Virus record (IMG/VR): IMGVR_UViG_3300031787_000018
Location: 1 to 64,000 of that record
Length of the DNA stretch: 64,000 nt
Source: an uncultured virus (IMG/VR IMGVR_UViG_3300031787_000018)
Taxonomy: Duplodnaviria > Heunggongvirae > Uroviricota > Caudoviricetes
Reading direction: 5' to 3' (one strand)
A program made the position numbers and the translations under genes. This document shows, piece by piece, positions 18,202 to 47,354 of the stretch (the stretch's first letter is position 1; every line of letters starts with the position of its first letter). Under the pieces are notes generated by a model. It was not told where the DNA came from. It was given only the letters and a program-made list of their open reading frames with translations, and did not search any database.

Positions 18202-18244
18202 TTGACATTTAAATAAACTTTTGTATATTTGTATCATATTTATT
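18202..18244 (+). promoter_or_regulatory. promoter of tRNA cluster 1
   Basis: TTGACA 18202, TATATTTG 18224, then ATATTTAT; similar to the promoters at 28594 and 33336. Confidence 0.75.
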
Positions 18245-18274
18245 AAACACAAAAAATTATATAGTAAACTCACC

Positions 18275-18364
18275 ATGACAAAGGCGACAACATACATTGT
18301 TTTAACTCACAGAGAGGAGAGAGAACGTTATCTGACTAACAGTCGGAGTGGATGTCGTATATAG
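18275..18364 (+). CDS. attenuator leader peptide 1 (Glu/Arg sensor), MTKATTYIVLTHREERERYLTNSRSGCRI
   Basis: AGA GAG GAG AGA GAA CGT run, followed by a terminator and then tRNA-Glu and tRNA-Arg. Confidence 0.8.
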   Translation: MTKATTYIVLTHREERERYLTNSRSGCRI

Positions 18365-18388
18365 TCATGTCTCTATATATCAAGATAT

Positions 18389-18416
18389 AAACCCCGATTA
18401 AGAGTCGGGGTTTTTT
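18389..18416 (+). terminator. attenuator terminator 1
   Basis: AAACCCCGATT-AAG-AGTCGGGGTTT+T; competing AGTCGGAGT at 18341-18349. Confidence 0.85.
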
Positions 18417-18471
18417 ATTTTGGCCAATAAATAAAAAATTTATACTTTTGTAAAAGTTCTTTGATAAACAA

Positions 18472-18543
18472 GCTCCCGTCGTCTAAAGGCAAGGACACAT
18501 CTCTTTCACAGATGAAATACGGTTTCAAGATCCGTCGGGAGTA
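18472..18543 (+). tRNA. tRNA-Glu(TTC)
   Basis: acceptor GCTCCCG/CGGGAGT; anticodon arm CATCT-CTTTCAC-AGATG. Confidence 0.85.
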
Positions 18544-18548
18544 CAAAT

Positions 18549-18622
18549 GGTTCCGTAACTCAATAGGATAGAGTAACTACCTTCTAAGTAGTAAGTTACA
18601 GGTTCGATCCCTGTCGGAATCA
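18549..18622 (+). tRNA. tRNA-Arg(TCT)
   Basis: GGTTCCG/CGGAATC; ACTAC-CTTCTAA-GTAGT; GGTTCGATCC. Confidence 0.92.
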
Positions 18623-18711
18623 CAAAAAAAGTGATAAAAAATTTATAAAGCGTATTGACAGAAGAGGTTTTTATCACTAGTATTAACAAACAAAAACGAT
18701 ATAGTTCTTTA

Positions 18712-19231: not shown

Positions 19232-20842
19232 ATGACAAAGTTCAAATCAAAAGCAGTGGAAAATTTTGACGGTGGTATTTCTTATACCTTAAACCCATTG
19301 GATACATTACGTATCGTGGCAGCATCATCTATCTTTGGTGAACCATCTTATTACAGAGGTTCTCACGACAAACCATCTAACTTATCTACGTTAAAGACGT
19401 ATGACGTGTTAGGTTTGTACAAAGACCCAAGTGATACAACTACTGATGTTTTCACTAAGGCTATCGACGAGGCTTTAGACTATGACTTCAAGGCAACCCT
19501 TGAGTTAGCTAAGACTCTTCGTCACGAACACTTCATGAGGTTAAACCCAGCGGTTATCTTCATTAGAGCGTCTCAACACCCAAAGAGGGTTGAATTTAAC
19601 GAAGCAAACCCAGGTTTGATGAAACAATACGGTTTGGACATTGTTGGTCGTCCTGATGACATCACCAACCAATTTGATTACTACATGTTCTTAAACGGTT
19701 CTAAGAATGGTTTACCATCTATCGTTAAGAGGACATGGGCTGAGAAGTTGGCGTCTTTCACCAAGTACCAAATCAAGAAATATAAGTCAAAGTCATTAAT
19801 TGACTTGGTTCGTATTTCTCACGCACACTCTGAAGTTATCGATGAGTTAATGAAGACTGGTGACGTGGCTGTTTCTGAAACTGAAACAACTTGGGAATCA
19901 CTTAGGTCTCAAGGTAAGACTTGGAAGGAAATTCTTAACACAATTAAGGTTTCACACATGGCTTTACTTAGGAACTTAAGGGGTATTTTCACTGAGGTGA
20001 ATGATACTGAAGTGGCTAAGAAGGTTTTAACTGACCTTAAGGCAGGTGTTAAGTTTGGTAAGCAATTCCCATTCCGTTACTACACAGCTTACAAGGAAAT
20101 CGATAAGGTTTCTATAAACCACAAGGGTATGATACTTGACGCTTTACAAGAGTGTCTTGACATCTCTATCGAAAACTTCCCTAAGTTAAAGGGTAAGGTG
20201 GCTTGTTTATCAGATAACTCTGGTTCAGCTTGGGGTACAATGACCTCTGAGTATGGTACAACCCATATTGCTGAAATTGCTAACTTATCATCTATCATCA
20301 CAGCTTTATGTTCTGATGAAGGATATGTCGGTGTCTTTGGTGAAAGATTGAGTTTAAAACCTGTTTCTAAAAGAGACGGTATTATTACTCAGTTGGAAGA
20401 AACTTGTAAGAGAGGTAAGTCTCAAGGACAATCTTGTGAACACGGTATTTGGTTATTCTTACGTGAAGCAATCGACACTAAAACTCACTATGATACTATC
20501 TTTATTTATAGTGACATGCAGGCAGGACACGGTGGTCTTTACGGTACAAGTGTAAGCCGTGGTGACGTTCACTCTAGAGGTGGAAGTTATGTAGACGTAC
20601 TTAAAATGGTACAAGAATACCGTAAGAAGGTTAACCCAAAGGTTAACGTATTCACAGTCCAAGTGGCTGGATACAACAACTCTGTTGTACCTGAAAACCT
20701 TTACAGGGGTTCAGTACTTGGGGGTTGGACTGGTAAGGAAGCCTTATACGCTAGTGAGGTAATCAAGACTTGGGATGAAATTGAGTCTAACGACAAGGTT
20801 ACATCTGAGGTTGAAGTTACTGAACAAGTAGTACAATCTTAA
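19232..20842 (+). CDS. rsr: Ro60/Rsr TROVE-domain RNA-binding protein with vWA domain
   Basis: FGEPSYY, MALLRNLRGI, QFPFRYYTAY, MIDAS DNSGSA, IYSDMQ. Confidence 0.92.
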   Translation: MTKFKSKAVENFDGGISYTLNPLDTLRIVAASSIFGEPSYYRGSHDKPSNLSTLKTYDVLGLYKDPSDTTTDVFTKAIDEALDYDFKATLELAKTLRHEHFMRLNPAVIFIRASQHPKRVEFNEANPGLMKQYGLDIVGRPDDITNQFDYYMFLNGSKNGLPSIVKRTWAEKLASFTKYQIKKYKSKSLIDLVRISHAHSEVIDELMKTGDVAVSETETTWESLRSQGKTWKEILNTIKVSHMALLRNLRGIFTEVNDTEVAKKVLTDLKAGVKFGKQFPFRYYTAYKEIDKVSINHKGMILDALQECLDISIENFPKLKGKVACLSDNSGSAWGTMTSEYGTTHIAEIANLSSIITALCSDEGYVGVFGERLSLKPVSKRDGIITQLEETCKRGKSQGQSCEHGIWLFLREAIDTKTHYDTIFIYSDMQAGHGGLYGTSVSRGDVHSRGGSYVDVLKMVQEYRKKVNPKVNVFTVQVAGYNNSVVPENLYRGSVLGGWTGKEALYASEVIKTWDEIESNDKVTSEVEVTEQVVQS

Positions 20843-28593: not shown

Positions 28594-28640
28594 TTGACAA
28601 GTAATAAACTTTTACTATCTTTGTATCATATTTATTAACA
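28594..28640 (+). promoter_or_regulatory. promoter of tRNA cluster 2 (47-nt block identical to 33336-33382)
   Basis: TTGACAAGTAATAAACTTTTACTATCTTTGTATCATATTTATTAACA. Confidence 0.8.
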
Positions 28641-28657
28641 GTAACAGAATTAAACAA

Positions 28658-28750
28658 ATGAAGACTTTAACAAACATATTATTCGTGATGACACTAACGG
28701 TGTTATTTCAGTTTACACAAACTGAACTCGGGTTCTTATGTCTAAGTTAA
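28658..28750 (+). CDS. attenuator leader peptide 2 (Gln/Phe/Met/Thr/Val/Leu sensor), MKTLTNILFVMTLTVLFQFTQTELGFLCLS
   Basis: 15 consecutive codons from the downstream tRNA set; antiterminator CTCGGGTTCTT 28727-28737. Confidence 0.85.
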   Translation: MKTLTNILFVMTLTVLFQFTQTELGFLCLS

Positions 28751-28778
28751 TCATTTAATATATTAACAAATTTAGAAG

Positions 28779-28806
28779 AACCCGAGAAAAACTCTCGGGT
28801 TTTTTT
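28779..28806 (+). terminator. attenuator terminator 2
   Basis: AACCCGAGA-AAAAC-TCTCGGGTT followed by T-run. Confidence 0.88.
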
Positions 28807-28815
28807 ATTTTATAT

Positions 28816-28889
28816 TATCCCGTCGCCTAATTGGCATGGCACTAGATTTTGACTCTAGCATAGTACAGGTTCGAACCCTGTCGGGATAA
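28816..28889 (+). tRNA. tRNA-Gln(TTG)
   Basis: TATCCCG/CGGGATA; CTAGA-TTTTGAC-TCTAG. Confidence 0.9.
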
Positions 28890-28919
28890 CCGAAGAAGTT
28901 ATTTGACATATTATATTTT

Positions 28920-28992
28920 GTGGAAGTTACCAAGTTGGTCAAGGTGTTGGTCTGAAAAACCAATTATATGAGTTCGATTCTCATCTTCCACA
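28920..28992 (+). tRNA. tRNA-Phe(GAA)
   Basis: GTGGAAG/CTTCCAC; TTGGT-CTGAAAA-ACCAA. Confidence 0.9.
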
Positions 28993-29108
28993 CAACAAGC
29001 CGTAGGTATGAATAAGTATATATATATATATATAATATTATTTTAATAACTTATTTAATCATTAATTAAAATAATCATCTAAAGTTCGATAATTTTTATC
29101 GATATATA

Positions 29109-29957
29109 ATGATATTTATTACTATGAAATGGTATAAAAAAGATATTGAAACATTGATTGAATTAATTCGTCAAGGTAACACCTATGATGAAATAGGTGT
29201 TATAATGAAAAGAAGTAGATCTTCTATTAAAGCTAAATTATTAAAATTGGGTGAGACATATAGAAAGTATTCTGAAAACAATTATTATGAAAAGGTTAAT
29301 TGTAAAAATTGTGGTATAGAATTTAAATCTTTAATGTCTAATAAACAAAAATTTTGTAACCATACATGTGCTGCAAGTTATAATAATGTAATTAGAGGTA
29401 AAAGAAGTCAAGAAACAAAAAATAAAATAAGTAAATCATTAAAAAGTAAAAAAAAGGAGAAATATGATTTAAATCCTAAAAAATGTATGAAATGTGGTGA
29501 ACATATACCATATAGTAAATGGTGTAATTATAGAAAAAATTGTGACGAATGTAACATTATTATTCGTAAAAATATGGGTAGGATTTTAGGTCAAAAAACC
29601 TCACAAACCAAAATAAAAAGATCGAAAGACGAGATAAATTTATATGAGTTATGTAAGATGAGTTTTAACGATGTTGAACATAATAAAATAATAAGTTCTG
29701 GATGGGATGCTGATATTGTTATAAATGATTATAAAATACTTATACTATGGAATGGTCCTTGGCATTATAAACAGTTACCATTAAAAAACCATAGTTTAAA
29801 TCAAGTACAAACTAGAGATAAAATAAAACAAAAATTGTTTGAAAGTTTAGGTTGGAGAGTTATAATATTTGAAGATAGATATTACACACCATATACAGCT
29901 TTTGATTATTTAAAAAATATAATTCGGGATATATCTCCCCACTCTCATAAGGTGTAG
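29109..29957 (+). CDS. putative free-standing homing endonuclease (Zn-ribbon plus Vsr/DUF559-like nuclease)
   Basis: CxxC pairs; DADIVI...ILWNGPWHY...RDKIK...GWRVIIFED; lies inside a tRNA cluster. Confidence 0.7.
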   Translation: MIFITMKWYKKDIETLIELIRQGNTYDEIGVIMKRSRSSIKAKLLKLGETYRKYSENNYYEKVNCKNCGIEFKSLMSNKQKFCNHTCAASYNNVIRGKRSQETKNKISKSLKSKKKEKYDLNPKKCMKCGEHIPYSKWCNYRKNCDECNIIIRKNMGRILGQKTSQTKIKRSKDEINLYELCKMSFNDVEHNKIISSGWDADIVINDYKILILWNGPWHYKQLPLKNHSLNQVQTRDKIKQKLFESLGWRVIIFEDRYYTPYTAFDYLKNIIRDISPHSHKV

Positions 29958-30002
29958 AAAGAGTAATTGGCAACATGTGAGTTCAACTCTCACTATCCCG
30001 AC
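29924..30002 (+). tRNA. atypical tRNA-Met(CAT)-like element lacking a normal D-arm
   Basis: TCGGGAT/ATCCCGA acceptor; CACT-CTCATAA-GGTG; GTGAG-TTCAACT-CTCAC T-arm. Confidence 0.45.
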
Positions 30003-30047
30003 AAAATAATGGTTCGATCTGTTCAAATCAGATATACGGTACTATAT

Positions 30048-30121
30048 TCCGGTGATACTCTGAAGGTAAGGGTGCTCGCCTTGTAAGCGAGATTTAGTCG
30101 GTTCGATCCCGACCACCGGAT
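30048..30121 (+). tRNA. tRNA-Thr(TGT)
   Basis: TCCGGTG/CACCGGA; CTCGC-CTTGTAA-GCGAG. Confidence 0.85.
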
Positions 30122-30126
30122 CAAAA

Positions 30127-30197
30127 GCCCTGATGACGTAATGGTAGCGTACTAATTTTACATGTTAGCAGCAAAGGTTCAATTCCTTTTCAGGGCA
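30127..30197 (+). tRNA. tRNA-Val(TAC)
   Basis: GCCCTGA/TCAGGGC; CTAAT-TTTACAT-GTTAG. Confidence 0.85.
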
Positions 30198-30203
30198 CAA
30201 AAA

Positions 30204-30280
30204 GCCTTCGTGACGTAATTGGTAACCGTGTTAGTTTTAGAAACTAAATTTTGTGAGTTCAAATCTCACCGAAGGCACCA
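30204..30280 (+). tRNA. tRNA-Leu(TAG), short variable loop
   Basis: GCCTTCG/CGAAGGC-ACCA; TTAGT-TTTAGAA-ACTAA. Confidence 0.88.
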
Positions 30281-30328
30281 AAAATTTTGATAATAAATAA
30301 ACTTTTACTATATTTGTATCAACAAAAT

Positions 30329-30402
30329 GTTCCCATGGCGAAATTGGTAAACGCAACGAGTTTAAGCCTCGTATGTTCTCGGTTCAAATCCGGGTGGGAA
30401 TA
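30329..30402 (+). tRNA. tRNA-Leu(TAA), short variable loop
   Basis: GTTCCCA/TGGGAAT; ACGAG-TTTAAGC-CTCGT. Confidence 0.88.
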
Positions 30403-30405
30403 CAA

Positions 30406-30897
30406 AACATTGACGATATGGCGTGTAGGTGTAACTCGTTATAACACCGAGGGGAACATATGGTATACGAGAAACCATTGTGGTGTGTCTGAAGGGTCAA
30501 TGTTGATATGGGGTGAGAATCTTAGTTGGCCACTAAGAAAATATGGAAGGGTGTCGCGTTACCCAATCGGCTCAAATCCGATCCACTCCACTTTGGGTTA
30601 TTTTTTGACCAAAAAATAATGAGTAAGAGATACTCAAGAGTTGGGCTACTGGTCTATATCGCGTGGCAGTCTAGATGAGTGATGAGACTTTAAACTTCAC
30701 CCCTTGGGTTAAAGGAGAAACATCGAACTCCTCCATTGTACGGTTGACAGGTTTTTATGTGGTAAGACACTAATGTAAACTCATAGAATTACCGATTAGA
30801 GACAAAGGGCTCTTCTGCAGGTGTTATGAGATGGTTCTCGAAACAGTCAGAGAAACCCGTTAAAATCTAATCCTCAAAGTAATCTCATTTGGGGTAA
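30406..30897 (+). ncRNA. unidentified structured RNA region, including a tRNA-like element at 30509-30590
   Basis: GC-richer and gene-free; helices AACATTGAC/GTCAATGTT, TGGGGTG/CACTCCA, T-arm-like ATCGG-CTCAAAT-CCGAT. Confidence 0.5.
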
Positions 30898-30901
30898 AAA
30901 T

Positions 30902-31001
30902 AGTCAGGTGGCGTAATTGGTAACCGCTATAGGGTTGAGGCGTGCTAACTACCTATATAAATTGTTTTTAAACAATGCAGGTTCGAGTCCTGTCCTGACT
31001 A
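30902..31001 (+). ncRNA. tRNA-like RNA, AGTCAGG family copy 1
   Basis: AGTCAGG/CCTGACT acceptor, D-arm, GCAGGTTCGAGTCCTGT T-arm; extended non-canonical anticodon arm. Confidence 0.75.
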
Positions 31002-31016
31002 CAAAAATAAAGACAT

Positions 31017-31121
31017 ATGGAATATATATTAGGATTTTTAATTGGTATAAGTATTTTTATTATTTTTCATAAACCTATTATTAGAGCTTTAGAAAAATTA
31101 ATCGACATTATCCAAGAATAG
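31017..31121 (+). CDS. small membrane peptide (34 aa)
   Basis: MEYILGFLIGISIFIIFHKPIIRALEKLIDIIQE. Confidence 0.5.
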   Translation: MEYILGFLIGISIFIIFHKPIIRALEKLIDIIQE

Positions 31122-31220
31122 TCAGGTGGTGAAATTGGTAGCCACAGCATATAAGACCATGGGCGTTGTGTTGAAACCTACTGGGGATTAGATTTACAGG
31201 TTCGAGTCCTGTCCTGACTA
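31120..31220 (+). ncRNA. tRNA-like RNA, AGTCAGG family copy 2
   Basis: same acceptor and near-identical T-arm as copy 1; different interior. Confidence 0.75.
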
Positions 31221-31223
31221 CAC

Positions 31224-31440
31224 GAGTCGAGTTGTGTTCGACTAATGTGCTCCCGCATGATGGAAGTGGTGTCACACCCACAGGGACCTGAGCCGATTAC
31301 TTGAATCTAAGTCGGTTGGTTGGTGTACCAGTAACAGGAGGAAGTTAACACACAAGTCCTAACCCCTCACGTAAGTGGGTTGCCGCTGAAGCCTCGAGAA
31401 GCTATTCGGTATTGGGGACAGTCAGAAATGATTGGGCGAA
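31224..31440 (+). ncRNA. unidentified structured RNA
   Basis: GC-rich non-coding stretch; hairpins AGTCGA/TCGACT, GCCGATT/AGTCGGT, CTCAC-GTAA-GTGGG, CAGTCA-GAAA-TGATTG. Confidence 0.45.
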
Positions 31441-31446
31441 AATTAT

Positions 31447-31521
31447 AGTCAGGTGGTAGAATTGTGATTACACCTTGGGACGAATGTCTAGGAGATACAG
31501 GTTCGAATCCTGTCCTGACTA
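31447..31521 (+). ncRNA. tRNA-like RNA, AGTCAGG family copy 3
   Basis: same acceptor and near-identical T-arm; anticodon arm closed by a 4-nt GAAT loop. Confidence 0.75.
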
Positions 31522-31554
31522 CAAGATATTTATAAAAGAGATAGGAGGGATTAC

Positions 31555-32037
31555 ATGGTACTAATACTTAACGCTGACTACACACCATTAACTGTGGCTA
31601 ACTTTAAAAGAGCCTACAGATTAGTGTATAAAGGTAAGGCAGAAATAGTGGTTTCTCATGGTAAAGTTGATGCTGGTATAATATTGGATAAGCCTTCCAT
31701 AATTAGATTAATTAAATATGTTTACTTTCCATATAAAAAAGTAACCTTATCAAGGTATAACATTTATAGAAGGGATGAACATAAGTGTTTATATTGTGGA
31801 TCCAAAGATAATTTAACGTTAGACCATGTTATACCAAGAAGTAAGGGTGGGCCAAACAGTTGGACAAACTTGGTGACATGTTGTATGAGATGTAATATGT
31901 TAAAGGGTGATAGAACACCTGATGAGGCAGGAATGGTATTATCACATAAACCATTTACACCTAATTATTTATATTTTATAAACAAAATGCATAAAATACA
32001 TGAAGAATGGAAACCTTATTTAATGGATGATAAATAA
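31555..32037 (+). CDS. HNH endonuclease (McrA-like)
   Basis: IYRRDEHKCLYCG...LTLDHVIPRSKGG..SWTNLVTCCMRCNMLKG. Confidence 0.92.
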   Translation: MVLILNADYTPLTVANFKRAYRLVYKGKAEIVVSHGKVDAGIILDKPSIIRLIKYVYFPYKKVTLSRYNIYRRDEHKCLYCGSKDNLTLDHVIPRSKGGPNSWTNLVTCCMRCNMLKGDRTPDEAGMVLSHKPFTPNYLYFINKMHKIHEEWKPYLMDDK

Positions 32038-33335: not shown

Positions 33336-33382
33336 TTGACAAGTAATAAACTTTTACTATCTTTGTATCATATTTATTAACA
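33336..33382 (+). promoter_or_regulatory. promoter of tRNA cluster 3 (identical to 28594-28640)
   Basis: exact 47-nt repeat containing TTGACA, TATCTTTG and ATATTTAT. Confidence 0.8.
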
Positions 33383-33400
33383 AACAAAACAATTAAAGAA

Positions 33401-33496
33401 ATGAAAAATTGGCATAACATATCGAGTATACATAGTAATCGAATTAATAGTTCGGTGTACACATGGTGTGTTTTGTCCAATCAAGATAATACTTAA
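33401..33496 (+). CDS. attenuator leader peptide 3 (Ser/His/Asn/Ile/Trp/Arg sensor), MKNWHNISSIHSNRINSSVYTWCVLSNQDNT
   Basis: 16 consecutive codons from the downstream tRNA set; antiterminator TGGTGTGTTTT 33464-33474. Confidence 0.87.
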   Translation: MKNWHNISSIHSNRINSSVYTWCVLSNQDNT

Positions 33497-33521
33497 TGGG
33501 AATTAAGTTTTTTGTACAAGG

Positions 33522-33556
33522 AAAACCCACCACATGAAAATGTCGGTGGGTTTTTT
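33522..33556 (+). terminator. attenuator terminator 3
   Basis: AAAACCCACC-ACAT-GAAA-ATGT-C-GGTGGGTTTT+TT. Confidence 0.85.
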
Positions 33557-33584
33557 GTTATTTGACATATTGGTAAATTAAAAT

Positions 33585-33673
33585 GGAGAGTTAAGCAGAT
33601 GCATTGGAGCGTCGACCAGCTTTGAAACCTGGGTCTCGTTAAGTCGGGTGGGGGTCGGGTCCTCAGCTCTCCG
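33585..33673 (+). tRNA. tRNA-Ser(TGA)
   Basis: GGAGAGT/GCTCTCC-G; loop TTTGAAA; long variable arm; atypical T-loop. Confidence 0.75.
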
Positions 33674-33679
33674 CAAAAT

Positions 33680-33768
33680 GGTGTTAGAGTCGGATATTGG
33701 TTAGCCGAGCTTGTCTGTGAAACAAGTGTTCTTTAGTGAACGTGCGGGTTCAATCCCCGTCTATCACC
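33680..33768 (+). tRNA. tRNA-His(GTG) with long variable arm
   Basis: G-1:C73; CTTGT-CTGTGAA-ACAAG. Confidence 0.85.
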
Positions 33769-33775
33769 CAAATAC

Positions 33776-33850
33776 GGGTCTGTAGTACTAATTGGATAAA
33801 ACTTTCGGCTGTTAACCGAGATGATGTGAGTTCGAGTCTCACTGGACCCG
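33776..33850 (+). tRNA. tRNA-Asn(GTT) 1
   Basis: GGGTCTG/TGGACCC; TTCGG-CTGTTAA-CCGAG. Confidence 0.85.
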
Positions 33851-33857
33851 CTGATTT

Positions 33858-33933
33858 GGACTGTAAGCTGACAAGGGGTAGCTGTGGCCTGTTAAGCCAA
33901 GGGTGGTGGGTTCGATTCCCACACAGTCCGCCA
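33858..33933 (+). tRNA. tRNA-Asn(GTT) 2
   Basis: GGACTGT/ACAGTCC-GCCA; TGGC-CTGTTAA-GCCA. Confidence 0.85.
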
Positions 33934-33936
33934 AAC

Positions 33937-34008
33937 GGGGGTATAGCTCAGTGGTAGAGCAGAGAGCTGTTAACTCTAAGGTCGTAGGTTCAATCCCTTC
34001 TACCCCCG
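33937..34008 (+). tRNA. tRNA-Asn(GTT) 3
   Basis: GGGGGTA/TACCCCC; canonical D-arm; AGAG-CTGTTAA-CTCT. Confidence 0.9.
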
Positions 34009-34015
34009 CAAATAT

Positions 34016-34088
34016 AGTATCGTGTCTGAACGGTTTAGGAACTATCCTGATAAGATAGGAAAAGTGGGTTCAACTCCCACCGATACTA
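34016..34088 (+). tRNA. tRNA-Ile(GAT)
   Basis: AGTATCG/CGATACT; CTATC-CTGATAA-GATAG. Confidence 0.88.
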
Positions 34089-34095
34089 CTAAAAT

Positions 34096-34169
34096 ACATC
34101 TGAGACCATATAGGAATTGGTACTGGCTTCCAAACCCAGTTGTTGCAGGTTCGAATCCTGTCAGATGTG
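34096..34169 (+). tRNA. tRNA-Trp(CCA)
   Basis: ACATCTG/CAGATGT-G; anticodon loop TTCCAAA. Confidence 0.85.
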
Positions 34170-34174
34170 CAAAA

Positions 34175-34264
34175 GGAAGATAGGTAAATATTGGTTTGTT
34201 ACAGCATCCTGCTAAGATGTCCCGGGTAATACCGGTGAGGGTTCAATTCCCTTGTCTTCCGCCA
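34175..34264 (+). tRNA. tRNA-Ser(GCT)
   Basis: GGAAGAT/GTCTTCC-GCCA; GCATC-CTGCTAA-GATGT; long variable arm. Confidence 0.9.
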
Positions 34265-34267
34265 AAT

Positions 34268-34355
34268 GGAGAGTTAAGGAAGGGAGTGGTTCCCTCGCTT
34301 GTTTGGAAAACAAGAACCCATTAAGTTGGGCACAGTTCGACTCTGTATCTCTCCG
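34268..34355 (+). tRNA. tRNA-Ser(GGA)
   Basis: GGAGAG/CTCTCC-G; CTTGT-TTGGAAA-ACAAG; long variable arm. Confidence 0.85.
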
Positions 34356-34365
34356 CTAATAACAT

Positions 34366-34437
34366 GGGCGTGTCATATAAGGGTTATTATGCGAAGCTTA
34401 TACCTTCGTCAAGGTGGCTCAACTCCACCCACGCCTA
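34366..34437 (+). tRNA. tRNA-Ile(TAT)
   Basis: GGGCGTG/CACGCCT-A; CGAAG-CTTATAC-CTTCG. Confidence 0.8.
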
Positions 34438-34442
34438 CAAAT

Positions 34443-34517
34443 GGTTCCATAGTGTAATTGGATAACACGCAAAGCTACGAACTTTGAGACTTGAGGGTTC
34501 AAATCCTTCTGGAACTA
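34443..34517 (+). tRNA. tRNA-Arg(ACG)
   Basis: GGTTCCA/TGGAACT; CAAAG-CTACGAA-CTTTG. Confidence 0.9.
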
Positions 34518-34522
34518 CTAAC

Positions 34523-34548
34523 AAACCCACCCCATGGTGGGTTTTTTT
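34523..34548 (+). terminator. terminator ending tRNA cluster 3
   Basis: AAACCCACC-CCAT-GGTGGGTTT followed by T-run. Confidence 0.85.
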
Positions 34549-36143: not shown

Positions 36144-36603
36144 TTATCTTAATGTTGACATCAATATTCTACCTGATTTAACAGAAGAAGAAAGGGTTAA
36201 ATTAGGTGGTAATAATATTGATTGGCAAACAAAACATTTTGAATGTGAAATGACCCATGTTTATATTGTTGAGGATACAGAAAATAAATTTAGACATTCA
36301 TTCTTAAAAAACAGAACACCTTATAAATTACAAATAAAAAGATTTGATTGGGAAGAGGTACCAAAAGAAGAAAGACCGTACCCAAATGCTGATGAAAATT
36401 CTTTTGAACACCTTCTAGGTTCTTTTAGGGAAATTAATGTAAGAGTTGAAGATTTAGATTATACAGGAACTTTTACTTTCTATACTTATATAAAACCAGA
36501 AGATGAGGGGATTGGTGATGTTAAAAAGTTAAAATGGGTTGAGTTTATTTGTGAAGTTGAAAATGGTAAAATAATTTCAATAAAGCGGTTGACAGATGAA
36601 TAA
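36130..36603 (+). CDS. hypothetical protein (MGMFD-start phage family)
   Basis: MGMFDYL...WQTK...YTGTFTFYT...WVEF. Confidence 0.65.
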   Translation: MGMFDYLNVDINILPDLTEEERVKLGGNNIDWQTKHFECEMTHVYIVEDTENKFRHSFLKNRTPYKLQIKRFDWEEVPKEERPYPNADENSFEHLLGSFREINVRVEDLDYTGTFTFYTYIKPEDEGIGDVKKLKWVEFICEVENGKIISIKRLTDE

Positions 36604-36822
36604 TAATCCTTATATTTGTATAAGAAATAAAAATACATAACATAAATTTAACATAAGCGTTGACAAATAAATAAAACTTTATTAATTTTGTCCATATTTA
36701 TTTATAGAAGTTGTGGTTCTGATGGGTTTCAGGAACCACCCCAAAAAAGACAGATACAGAACGGGGACTGTTTACAACGAAAACCCCACAAAAAAAACTA
36801 TAAACAAATTAAAACTAAAAAA

Positions 36823-36930
36823 ATGAGAAAGAATTACACATATCAACCGAGTACACCGAAAGCAGGGAAAGTAGCCGATAAAGGCTGTGATACCTTGAAT
36901 GGTTGTGGTATGTACAATTCTGTCTCATAA
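36823..36930 (+). CDS. attenuator leader peptide 4 (Tyr/Pro/Asp/Gly/Ala/Cys/Lys sensor), MRKNYTYQPSTPKAGKVADKGCDTLNGCGMYNSVS
   Basis: 11 of codons 12-23, plus Y5, Y7 and P9, match downstream tRNAs; antiterminator GGTTGTGG 36901-36908. Confidence 0.85.
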   Translation: MRKNYTYQPSTPKAGKVADKGCDTLNGCGMYNSVS

Positions 36931-36954
36931 GAATATATAGAGAAGAGTTTAAAT

Positions 36955-36991
36955 AACCCCCACAACCGATAAAAAAGTTGTGGGGGTTTTT
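36955..36991 (+). terminator. attenuator terminator 4
   Basis: AACCCCCACAAC-CGATAAAAAA-GTTGTGGGGGTT+TTT. Confidence 0.88.
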
Positions 36992-37005
36992 GTTTATAGT
37001 TATAC

Positions 37006-37087
37006 CCGTAAGTTGAACAGGTGGTGAGTTCCGTTGACTGTAGATCAACCGTTTTAAACTGTGGGGGTTCGATTCCCTCCTTACGGA
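37006..37087 (+). tRNA. tRNA-Tyr(GTA), C1:G72
   Basis: CCGTAAG/CTTACGG-A; GTTGA-CTGTAGA-TCAAC. Confidence 0.88.
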
Positions 37088-37107
37088 CAAAAACGTTCAT
37101 TGAAAAT

Positions 37108-37231
37108 AAAAAGAATAGAAGCGGTGGTATTGGTTACATCGATAATGGATATCAATTTGACAGCAAATCAAACGTTGTGGGTTCGAGTCCCATGATAAAA
37201 AACACCGATATTTTTATTCTCTGTTCTTTTT
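37108..37231 (+). ncRNA. Y-RNA-like RNA 3 with tRNA-like module
   Basis: AGAATAGA/TCTGTTCT and GTATTGGT/ACCGATAT stems; GAAGCGGT and TACATC motifs; D-, anticodon- and T-arm-like (GTGGGTTCGAGTCCCAT) hairpins inside. Confidence 0.75.
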
Positions 37232-37237
37232 AAATAT

Positions 37238-37316
37238 ATGGGGTTGGAGGAGTCAGGTTTTCCTCGCTTGGTTTGGGACCAAGAGACTTGCGTGGGTTCA
37301 AATCCCACACCCCATA
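37238..37316 (+). tRNA. tRNA-Pro(TGG)
   Basis: ATGGGGT/ACCCCAT; CTTGG-TTTGGGA-CCAAG. Confidence 0.88.
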
Positions 37317-37322
37317 CAAAAC

Positions 37323-37399
37323 GGATACGGCGCATAACGGCTGGTGTACCTGACTGTCTATCAGGTTTTAAGAGGGTTCGACTCCCTTCGTATCCGCCA
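37323..37399 (+). tRNA. tRNA-Asp(GTC)
   Basis: GGATACG/CGTATCC-GCCA; CCTGA-CTGTCTA-TCAGG. Confidence 0.88.
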
Positions 37400-37401
37400 A
37401 T

Positions 37402-37472
37402 GCGGGATTAGCATAAAGTTAATGTACTAGTCTTCCAAACTAGTGAAGTCGGATAGTTACCGGCATCCCGCT
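37402..37472 (+). tRNA. tRNA-Gly(TCC), atypical T-loop
   Basis: GCGGGAT/ATCCCGC-T; CTAGT-CTTCCAA-ACTAG. Confidence 0.82.
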
Positions 37473-37482
37473 CTAAAATTAT

Positions 37483-37557
37483 GGGCTACATCCCGAAGGC
37501 AGGGCACTTGATTTGCACTCAAGTGAAAACGGTAGGGTTCGATTCCCTCGTGGTCCA
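37483..37557 (+). tRNA. tRNA-Ala(TGC)
   Basis: G3:U70 in GGGCTAC/GTGGTCC; CTTGA-TTTGCAC-TCAAG. Confidence 0.85.
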
Positions 37558-37571
37558 CAAATATAATAAAA

Positions 37572-37662
37572 GGGTCTGTGGTGTGAGTGGTTTAAACCAC
37601 CTGTCTGCAAAACAGGGATGACAATTAATTTTGTTACGTCAGTTCGAATCTGACCAGACCCT
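37572..37662 (+). tRNA. tRNA-Cys(GCA) with long variable arm
   Basis: GGGTCTG/CAGACCC-T (U73); CCTGT-CTGCAAA-ACAGG. Confidence 0.85.
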
Positions 37663-37674
37663 CTAAAAAATAAA

Positions 37675-37749
37675 GACCTCGTAACTTAGTTGGTTTAAAG
37701 TGCTAATCTTTTAAATTAGAAATCGTGAGTTCGAATCTCACCGGGGTCA
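37675..37749 (+). tRNA. tRNA-Lys(TTT)
   Basis: GACCTCG/CGGGGTC; CTAAT-CTTTTAA-ATTAG. Confidence 0.9.
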
Positions 37750-37750
37750 C

Positions 37751-38203
37751 TTAACCACCATAACAATCAATACCTTTTATGGTTATTGTTGTATCGTTTT
37801 TAATTGTAATTTCTGTTTTTTCAGGGAAATATTCCTCATGGGTTAAATCATTACTACACTCAACCCTAGGATTGTCCAATTTTATAATAAGTTTATCATC
37901 TGATATCACACCTCTAATTGGTGTGTCTAACTTATAATAAACATTACCACCATCATAATCTTTATGTACTGTTCTTTCGTAAAATATTGAACCAAATATT
38001 GAATCTGAAAATACTGATTTTGTGTAATCTATAGTACAATAATAAGAAGTGTTACCACTCATAGTACTACGAATTTGACCTTCATATCTATAACTCGAAC
38101 TAAACAATCCACAAATCAAGGCAATTATAATCACCAAAAATACTAATCCACCGCCTCCACCACTAGGTGTTGATGGTACCCATACCCAAAAACCTTTTGA
38201 CAT
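37751..38203 (-). CDS. hypothetical membrane protein
   Basis: Gly run followed by a TM helix near the N-terminus. Confidence 0.65.
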   Translation of the reverse strand: MSKGFWVWVPSTPSGGGGGLVFLVIIIALICGLFSSSYRYEGQIRSTMSGNTSYYCTIDYTKSVFSDSIFGSIFYERTVHKDYDGGNVYYKLDTPIRGVISDDKLIIKLDNPRVECSNDLTHEEYFPEKTEITIKNDTTITIKGIDCYGG

Positions 38204-46930: not shown

Positions 46931-47321
46931 GGGGGTGACTTGGAATTGATTGGCTACATTAGTTATTGTAAAAGCATGTCGAGACTTGTTTGTAGGCTCG
47001 TTAAACCAACAATCAAAATTTTAAATGGCGACATTTTCGCAGACGCTACTGTAGGTCACTTTGTGACTGAAGGTGCAGAGGTTGTAGCCTAATTAGATTA
47101 GGGTACACAACGGGGTTGGATTACCTAGGAACAGAAGTCCAAAAAAGGGTGTTACCACTACCACAAAAGGGTAAAGTCAAACATGGAATGTGTCAACTAA
47201 GTCCATGGGAGAACTAAAAGATGAAGTTGTATATTTTGGGTGGTTAGAAAACCACATCCTAAACATGTAGAAGACTTTAATTCATTAGAACAAGACGGCG
47301 GTTCGACCCCGCTCACCTCCA
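46931..47321 (+). ncRNA. ssrA: tmRNA
   Basis: GGGGGTG/CACCTCC-A acceptor with G3:U; GCGGTTCGACCCCGC T-arm; tag ORF 47027-47092 after TTAAAT. Confidence 0.93.
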
Positions 47322-47354
47322 CTTTAGAAATTTATTAACCTAAAAATCGAAAAA

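Follow-up and report, generated by a model that had tools for sequence, protein, structure and literature searches.

A candidate leader-peptide attenuator in front of a tRNA gene array of an uncultured freshwater giant phage

Leader-peptide attenuators control the trp, his, phe and leu operons, and the leaders of the thr and ilv operons are multivalent; to our knowledge, all classical members of this class regulate genes of amino-acid biosynthesis or aminoacylation. Here we consider a locus, termed unit 4 or unit D, in a 64,000-nucleotide stretch of DNA (the window), which is the first 64 kb of the 132,425-base virus record IMGVR_UViG_3300031787_000018 in IMG/VR (CheckV completeness estimate 67%; G+C of the window about 29-30%). 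Its source is an uncultured freshwater giant phage, and the sequencing runs containing the stretch are mostly freshwater metagenomes. Unit 4 appears to be a ribosome-mediated (leader-peptide) transcription attenuator gating a phage tRNA operon, a reading to which we assign a probability of roughly 80%, and the phage would probably make these tRNAs when ribosomes read their codons slowly. A sequence-only reading of the locus had already proposed an attenuator of this kind, and the proposal is supported by four parallel units in the window and by 30 leaders, which follow their own array and their own terminator in composition, reading frame, codon position and pairing. The genes downstream of unit 4 are seven tRNA genes and thus lie outside the classical target class, although the structural features of that class are present.

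With the attenuators of amino-acid operons unit 4 shares a promoter-proximal short open reading frame (ORF) with regulatory codons, an intrinsic terminator and an antiterminator arm in or near the end of the ORF; as in the thr and ilv leaders, several amino acids would be sensed by one leader, and the stall at a regulatory codon is proposed to result in read-through. Unlike in those operons, tRNA genes and not biosynthetic enzymes would be regulated, the product acting directly on the sensed variable; one leader may report on up to seven or more amino acids, with two to five codons for each and without long runs; the system is phage-borne, and most of its units lack a convincing 1:2 hairpin. 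The attenuator of pheST with its pheM leader is likewise a case of leader-peptide control of a translation-apparatus gene by sensing of charged tRNA, but it is cellular, responds to one amino acid and controls phenylalanyl-tRNA synthetase, whereas here the tRNA genes themselves are the target. T-box riboswitches also choose between terminator and antiterminator and report the status of a tRNA before translation-related genes; they differ in that uncharged tRNA is bound directly, by means of a specifier codon and a conserved T-box sequence and with no translation involved, whereas an in-frame ORF is found here. No T-box was detected by Rfam at its gathering threshold in the whole window, where only tRNAs and one transfer-messenger RNA (tmRNA) were returned, nor among the 30 matches listed by a permissive Rfam search of positions 36600-37800; at the unit 4 locus no known RNA family except tRNA scored above threshold.

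Phage tRNA arrays are seen either as compensation for codon usage or as counter-defence against host systems that cleave tRNAs. A large phage-borne tRNA set together with a tmRNA is common to such accounts and to the present phage; in the portions available to us these accounts concern content and benefit, and no regulatory leader was found in those portions. Full-text literature searches yielded, in the passages at hand, no published description of leader-peptide control of tRNA genes, an older precedent concerning a single cellular tRNA gene being possible; the passage seen of PMC3082878 is unrelated to such control. The parts and the logic of the proposed switch are those known from leader-peptide attenuation, the multivalent thr and ilv leaders and that of pheST being the nearest counterparts, and tRNA genes as its target appear to be new. 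Commonly, tRNA genes are thought to be regulated globally, through growth rate and the stringent response; if the reading is true, classical attenuation gives them gene-specific, demand-driven feedback. It would then also explain how large phages avoid the cost of a full tRNA set when the host pool suffices, and it would make the purpose of phage tRNAs, debated between codon usage and counter-defence, a matter for experiment, namely which perturbation opens which unit. The covarying leader-array pairs would in that case form a natural series of multi-amino-acid sensors, reusable as reporters of the decoding status of single tRNAs.

Layout of unit 4 and codon content of the leaders

Unit 4, like its sister units, lies on the plus strand. 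Its promoter boxes (36589-36690) come first and are followed by a leader ORF with 35 codons (36823-36930, stop codon included), then by the intrinsic terminator at 36955-36999 and the tRNA array at 37006-37750. Codons 1-23 of the ORF form the sensing zone. Region 1, the proposed anti-antiterminator arm, is located at 36838-36848; region 2, the antiterminator arm within the ORF (36900-36909), ends 19 nt before the stop codon; region 3 comprises the terminator 5' arm (36955-36966) and the first loop base (up to 36967); and region 4 comprises the 3' arm (36977-36988) with the T-rich tail (up to 36999). The terminator has a 12-bp stem, a 10-nt loop and a T-run (-20.3 kcal/mol), and a terminator scan with a loop limit of 8 does not list it on account of its loop. 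One compensatory change in it is found among five close relatives. The array encodes tRNA-Tyr(GUA) (37006-37088), a degenerate tRNA-like element, tRNA-Pro(UGG) (37238-37317), tRNA-Asp(GUC) (37323-37399), tRNA-Gly(UCC) (37402-37473), tRNA-Ala(UGC) (37483-37558), tRNA-Cys(GCA) (37572-37663) and tRNA-Lys(UUU) (37675-37750); coordinates are those of ARAGORN, with tRNA-Asp called by Rfam and by ARAGORN at a lowered threshold. The sequence-only reading, which had placed tRNA-Lys(UUU) last, had all of its coordinates right. The degenerate element (37134-37201) reaches 21.4 bits in Rfam, which is below threshold, and is called as Cys(GCA) by ARAGORN solely at a lowered threshold; it may be a decaying duplicate of tRNA-Cys.

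The switch would operate as follows. Transcription would start from the upstream promoter boxes (36589-36690), and a ribosome would start on the leader ORF. If it reads smoothly, it would cover region 2 on its way to the stop codon at 36928, the terminator (36955-36988) would fold and the polymerase would halt 17 nt before tRNA-Tyr. If instead a codon for Tyr, Pro, Lys, Ala, Gly, Asp or Cys slows it down within codons 1-23, region 2 would remain open and would pair with the terminator 5' arm as soon as this is made, so that no terminator would form and the seven tRNA genes would be transcribed. The three sister units would handle other tRNA sets likewise. Since the product would relieve the signal, the supply of these tRNAs would be subject to negative feedback governed by demand.

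The four units of the window are built alike, each with a promoter motif, an ORF of 29-35 codons, a strong terminator and a tRNA block. Unit A (18202-18623) has a 29-codon leader (18275-18364) and a terminator before tRNA-Glu and tRNA-Arg(UCU); unit B (28594-30280) has a 30-codon leader (28658-28750) and a terminator before tRNA-Gln and tRNA-Phe, an inserted ORF, and tRNA-Thr, tRNA-Val and tRNA-Leu; unit C (33336-34544) has a 31-codon leader (33401-33496) and a terminator before genes for His, Asn (three), Ile, Trp, Ser (two), Ile and Arg(ACG) tRNAs. As had been claimed from the sequence, the leader of unit 4 holds codons for all seven amino acids of its array (Tyr 3, Pro 2, Asp 2, Gly 5, Ala 2, Cys 2, Lys 4). 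Taking the expected frequencies from the long ORFs of the window and using binomial tests, 19 of the 34 residues after the start belong to the set of its own array, where 11.8 are expected (p = 0.0094). Corresponding values are 8 of 28 for leader A (3.1 expected, p = 0.0086), 21 of 29 for leader B (7.8 expected, p = 3.8e-7) and 20 of 30 for leader C (8.7 expected, p = 2e-5), and by this fraction each of the four leaders ranks first among the 147 small ORFs of the window. Matches to the sets of the other units do not exceed expectation, except for leader A against set C (11 versus 8.1, p = 0.16). The match of leader B takes in the Thr, Val and Leu genes beyond the inserted ORF, and the corresponding genes are contiguous in a relative (L193; such L-numbers label relative loci on viral contigs). 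Unit 4 by itself is only moderately significant, and the case is strong only together with the sister units and the relatives.

Relatives come from IMG/VR, where promoter or leader patterns were used in four scans of viral contigs and five records were fetched; many contigs of like design were obtained in this way. To all viral loci we applied a finder free of motif and composition, which takes the first tRNA of an array, a terminator at most 170 nt upstream of it and an ATG-initiated ORF of 20-50 codons ending 8-55 nt before the stem. It gave 79 matches, corresponding to 30 distinct leaders in 14 similarity (ortholog) groups; in these family-wide analyses the window units are replaced by loci of a near-identical 317,983-base contig (L435 for units D and C, L110 for B, L038 for A). 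At least 120 metagenome loci were excluded for want of a related leader: in the metagenome scan for unit 4 orthologues, none of these loci had one, the best local score being 49 as compared with 57-194 among true members. Over the 30 leaders, own-set matches amount to 539 against 336.3 expected (z = 16.2), and 23 of the 30 are individually significant at p < 0.05. The true pairing of leaders with arrays, with one representative for each of the 14 groups, scores 44.0, and the maximum of 200,000 permutations is 34.3. An earlier, hand-located set of 18 units behaves likewise (274 matches versus 147.4 expected, z = 12.8), the true assignment of its eight group representatives being the single best of all 40,320 permutations.

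Homologous leaders also differ as their arrays differ. Within the unit 4 family, L189 has neither a Pro codon nor a tRNA-Pro; in L421 and L430, leaders with many Gln, Thr, Pro, Lys and Tyr codons precede arrays for the same amino acids, with Asp, Ala and Cys absent. Outside this family, an Arg/Leu/Gln leader precedes an array of Arg, Leu, Gln and Leu in L190. The matched codons are furthermore concentrated where a stall would free the antiterminator arm: upstream of region 2 they make up 307 of 448 codons (0.69), after it 136 of 360 (0.38; Fisher 1.5e-18), in 27 of the 30 units, the three arrays covering all amino acids being left out. With one unit per group the proportions are 147 of 232 (0.63) and 68 of 177 (0.38), p = 4e-7, and in unit 4 itself 14 of 21 residues in the sensing zone and 5 of 13 in the tail belong to the own set.

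In the hand-located set the matched fraction is 0.50 in the frame of the ORF as compared with 0.27 and 0.22 in the other two frames. This bears on the idea that sensing takes place at the level of the RNA and without a ribosome, with tRNAs that base-pair directly to codon-like leader triplets, much as in a T-box, and stabilise the antiterminator. Leader triplets do match the anticodons of the array, as such an idea would have it; the match is confined, however, to one frame, that of the conserved ATG-to-stop ORF, the distance from stop codon to terminator is fixed, an A-rich and very G-poor sequence precedes the start codon, one short RNA would need to read up to 11 tRNA species, and no T-box or other riboswitch model scores above threshold, so that we regard ribosome-free sensing as most improbable. 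In the 20 nt before the 30 leader start codons A accounts for 63% and G for 6%, versus 45% and 10% before the long ORFs of the window. Shine-Dalgarno-independent initiation has been described in Bacteroidota, and we take the start context of the leaders to fit initiation of that type.

Codon choice in the leaders shows a further bias. NNG codons, which are read through wobble by the U34 tRNAs of the own array, are overused (93 of 222 versus 43.8 expected); in unit 4 these are two CCG codons for Pro (CCG makes up 6% of the Pro codons in the window ORFs), GGG for Gly and AAG for Lys. The overuse may tune sensitivity, or may merely reflect the G+C needed for pairing.

Pairing of leader and terminator

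The sequence-only reading had noted that 36901-36908 is the exact complement of 36960-36967, and all eight pairs are indeed standard, the one segment being the reverse complement of the other; the latter segment, which had been assigned to the terminator 5' arm, consists of the last 7 nt of that arm and, as its remaining base, the first base of the loop. The full antiterminator duplex of unit 4 (36900-36909 with 36958-36967) has a predicted energy of -14.5 kcal/mol; when the ORF is shuffled by dinucleotide, 1.2% of the sequences attain this energy, and 8.0% do so when it is shuffled by codon. The duplex of unit B is at about -20 kcal/mol. The terminator 5' arm has its strongest partner, in every one of the 30 units, within the 3' portion of the ORF, at 1-45 nt upstream of the stop codon, which in turn lies 18-34 nt before the arm. 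At a threshold of 0.05 the shuffled-ORF test is passed by 26 of the 30 units (dinucleotide) and by 22 (codon). For the 26 units with distinct arms, the energies of each ORF with its own arm sum up to -393.3 kcal/mol, as compared with -250.9 (sd 14.1) for permuted arms; none of 100,000 permutations reaches the own-arm sum.

The dependence of this pairing on the ribosome was modelled with a ribosome covering 12 nt beyond the first base of the A site, the RNA behind it being excluded and the transcript ending just before the 3' arm. For unit 4 the predicted probability of the antiterminator is 0.80 for a stall at codons 1-22, 0.70 at codon 23, 0.38 at codon 24 and 0.00 from codon 25 to the stop. 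The same step with ribosome position is predicted in 30 of 30 units, and with the ribosome at the stop codon the probability falls below 0.1 in 17 of the 30.

An anti-antiterminator close to the start of the leader had also been proposed. The corresponding pairing (36838-36848 with 36901-36913) is present in the minimum-energy fold of unit 4, but at -11.1 kcal/mol it is no better than that of shuffled sequences, 43% of which reach this energy. Without a ribosome the predicted antiterminator probability of unit 4 falls from 0.80 to 0.14 when the RNA is taken from the ORF start (0.14-0.21 across calculations). Among the 30 units only six, A, C and D among them, have a no-ribosome probability at least 0.2 below their maximum, and most units would therefore be ON when untranslated. 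A 5-mer of region 1 occurs at ORF nucleotides 14-18 in 11 of 14 leader groups, and its reverse complement is found after region 2 in 5 of 14 groups versus 2-3 in control pairings, which is at most a hint of an anti-antiterminator. As a general feature the element is nevertheless unproven, with an energy at the level of shuffles in unit 4 and a clear drop in 6 of 30 units, and we do not adopt it.

The prediction of an antiterminator without a ribosome in most units, a clear no-ribosome drop being confined to the six just mentioned, is what one would expect if the switch reported general translation capacity (ribosome availability, initiation, or coupling after host shut-off) and not specific tRNAs, any incomplete translation of the leader opening the array. 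For units A, C and D an anti-antiterminator is in fact predicted, the no-ribosome probability being 0.18-0.24. Moreover, a switch of this general kind leaves unexplained why leader codons match the array so well that the true assignment beats all permutations, why codons and array tRNAs are gained and lost jointly in homologous leaders, and why the matched codons cluster in the sensing zone; we consider it unlikely for these reasons, and codon-specific attenuation is retained as the preferred reading.

Two other structures were noted in the 5' part of unit 4. A conserved hairpin of the 5' untranslated region (36713-36739) is part of the minimum-energy fold; each of the five sequences compared forms all seven of its pairs, and one compensatory and one wobble change are seen among them. 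The hairpin sits in a long 5' untranslated region that is peculiar to leaders of the unit 4 type. A long-range pairing of 36709-36729 with the terminator arm, seen in the minimum-energy fold (-14.8 kcal/mol), was considered and rejected: the segment forms the conserved local hairpin, and the pairing is not kept in L410.

Promoters, RNA contigs and the weight of the case

A shared promoter motif is located at 18202, 28594, 33336 and 36660 and, without a leader behind it, also at 30287; a stricter version of it has four matches within the 132-kb record, all of them at tRNA clusters, and the reversed control has none. In unit 4 this motif (P2, 36660-36690) is the homologue of that before the other tRNA units, has a two-box pattern and is kept in three of four close relatives by alignment. 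A second promoter-like site with two boxes (P1, 36589-36618) scores 11 of 12 in a sigma-70 scan and fits the two-box pattern; the two boxes presumably correspond to the Bacteroidota promoter type.

Six metatranscriptome runs contain the stretch, and the contigs of four were examined. Each of these four has one contig which spans the terminator, continues into the array and extends far more than 31 nt to either side. The bridging contigs of three runs start at 36641 (X8), 36641 (X11, with adapter letters in front) and 36646 (X12), that is 23-28 nt past P1 and between P1 and P2, and extend to 37815-38098. These contigs fit transcription from the upstream promoter site that continues past the terminator into the array, and their starts suggest that P1 is active in the three sampled runs. 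All of them stem from RNA runs; they show neither transcript ends nor strand and carry no information on conditions, and neither a gap in run X18 (36664-36775) nor the low depth of the flanks is counted as evidence. Mean depths of the bridging contigs are 36 (X8), 65.6 (X11) and 13.7 (X12), with 2-6.7 for flanking contigs, so that the bridging contigs are 2-15 times as deep as the covered flanks in these three runs (one X11 flank has no cover), each depth being a single mean per contig from which termination efficiency is unreadable, with DNA in the RNA libraries a possible contribution.

Read-through of this kind would also be given by a leaky terminator. One may therefore ask whether the small ORF and the terminator are an independent mini-gene or small RNA, with the hairpin acting as a leaky terminator or as a processing or stability element, and with constitutive read-through and no sensing of codons; the RNA contigs across the terminator in 4 of 4 runs would be expected under this alternative, and promoter-like space follows the terminator in unit A and four relatives. 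It makes mere coincidences, however, of the match between codons and array, of its frame specificity and of its enrichment in the sensing zone. Two features of the layout also stand against it: all 30 units keep a constant spacing between the stop and the ORF segment complementary to their own terminator arm, and in unit 4 and most other units the first tRNA follows 6-30 nt after the T-run; in unit 4 tRNA-Tyr starts 17 nt after the beginning of the T-run, leaving no room for a promoter between them. We judge a mini-gene with a leaky terminator to be very unlikely.

The limit on the RNA depths is one of several points which weigh against an attenuator at unit 4. What is directly observed comprises the parts, their geometry, the match of codons to array, the pairing with the own terminator and the RNA contigs crossing it; we infer that the ORF is translated, that ribosomes stall on it and that the stall causes read-through, as well as the natural cause of tRNA depletion. 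Taken singly, unit 4 makes a weak case, with its composition at p = 0.009 and its antiterminator equalled or beaten by 8% of codon shuffles. Each cognate amino acid is represented by two to five codons only, and at some of these, placed within or behind region 2, a stall would promote termination instead. Seven of the 30 units are without a significant codon match (in three of them the array serves all 20 amino acids, and in one the contig ends within the array), and orthologous units are not independent, which makes the tests at group level the fair ones. As for pairing, the own arm is the single best partner in only 11 of the 26 units, partly because relatives share arms; among four sublineages of the family the own assignment of ORF to arm is best by a narrow margin (-52.6 versus -50.1), and the ORF of L189 pairs better with the arm of unit 4 than with its own. 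All five close relatives of unit 4 keep the eight antiterminator pairs unchanged, so that these show no covariation and are uninformative either way. In unit A and four relatives (L065, L193, L430 and L410), finally, the terminator is followed by space for a promoter, and their arrays may also be expressed independently of the attenuator. In these five loci the distance from terminator to first tRNA is 60-99 nt (18413-18471 in unit A), and a further promoter-like box is seen in unit A and L065.

Possible trigger and other features of the tRNA regions

The natural trigger of the proposed attenuators could be codon-usage demand, loss of host tRNAs or a tRNA-cleaving defence. PrrC cleaves tRNA-Lys, and colicin E5 cleaves the tRNAs for Tyr, His, Asn and Asp. 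The sequence-only reading had linked unit 4 to these nucleases, a link which is a proposal about the natural trigger and goes beyond the sequence evidence. In its wider form, the near-complete tRNA set of the phage would be divided into blocks, each with a codon-matched leader of its own, and the leaders would jointly act as a distributed sensor of decoding capacity in the infected cell, which detects depleted tRNA species (depleted, for example, by host anticodon nucleases in defence) and resupplies that subset, unit 4 covering Lys as well as the Tyr and Asp targets of nucleases resembling PrrC and colicin E5; we put this forward as a tentative and rather doubtful extension.

No close cultured phage was found in a phage collection, in which a 2.4-kb stretch around unit 4 matched solely tRNA genes of unrelated phages, an 871-residue ORF had no match and the leader region of unit C gave one partial, unrelated match. 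Pfam searches of 18 window ORFs identified DnaJ, a TROVE/Ro-like protein, Mom, HNH and Fpg/Nei glycosylase. ARAGORN counts 22 tRNAs in the window, and Rfam gives 23 tRNA matches and the one tmRNA (46931-47324, 82 bits), which has a counterpart in L190 (8819-9200). Endonuclease-type ORFs lie within the tRNA blocks (29109-29957, and 31555-32037 with HNH), and in relatives between terminator and array (L055, 1803-2440; L101); they look like mobile insertions which split once-contiguous arrays. A group I intron is present in L192 (298-597).

A conserved short box follows the T-run of the terminator in several groups (unit C, 33557-33581; L088, L094, L100, L116, L137 and L408) and recurs between tRNA-Gln and tRNA-Phe of unit B (28892-28919); it could be a processing site. 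Three tRNA-like elements (30902-31001, 31120-31221 and 31447-31522) have their acceptor ends in common and contain insertions. With the Rfam tRNA model two of them (30902-31001 and 31447-31521) reach 41-48 bits, ARAGORN calls all three solely when introns are allowed, and the three lie between G+C-rich stretches (30400-30900 and 31215-31440) without a family match. Since the window also contains the ORF of the TROVE/Ro-like protein (19232-20842), the three elements might be partners of the Y-RNA or YrlA type.

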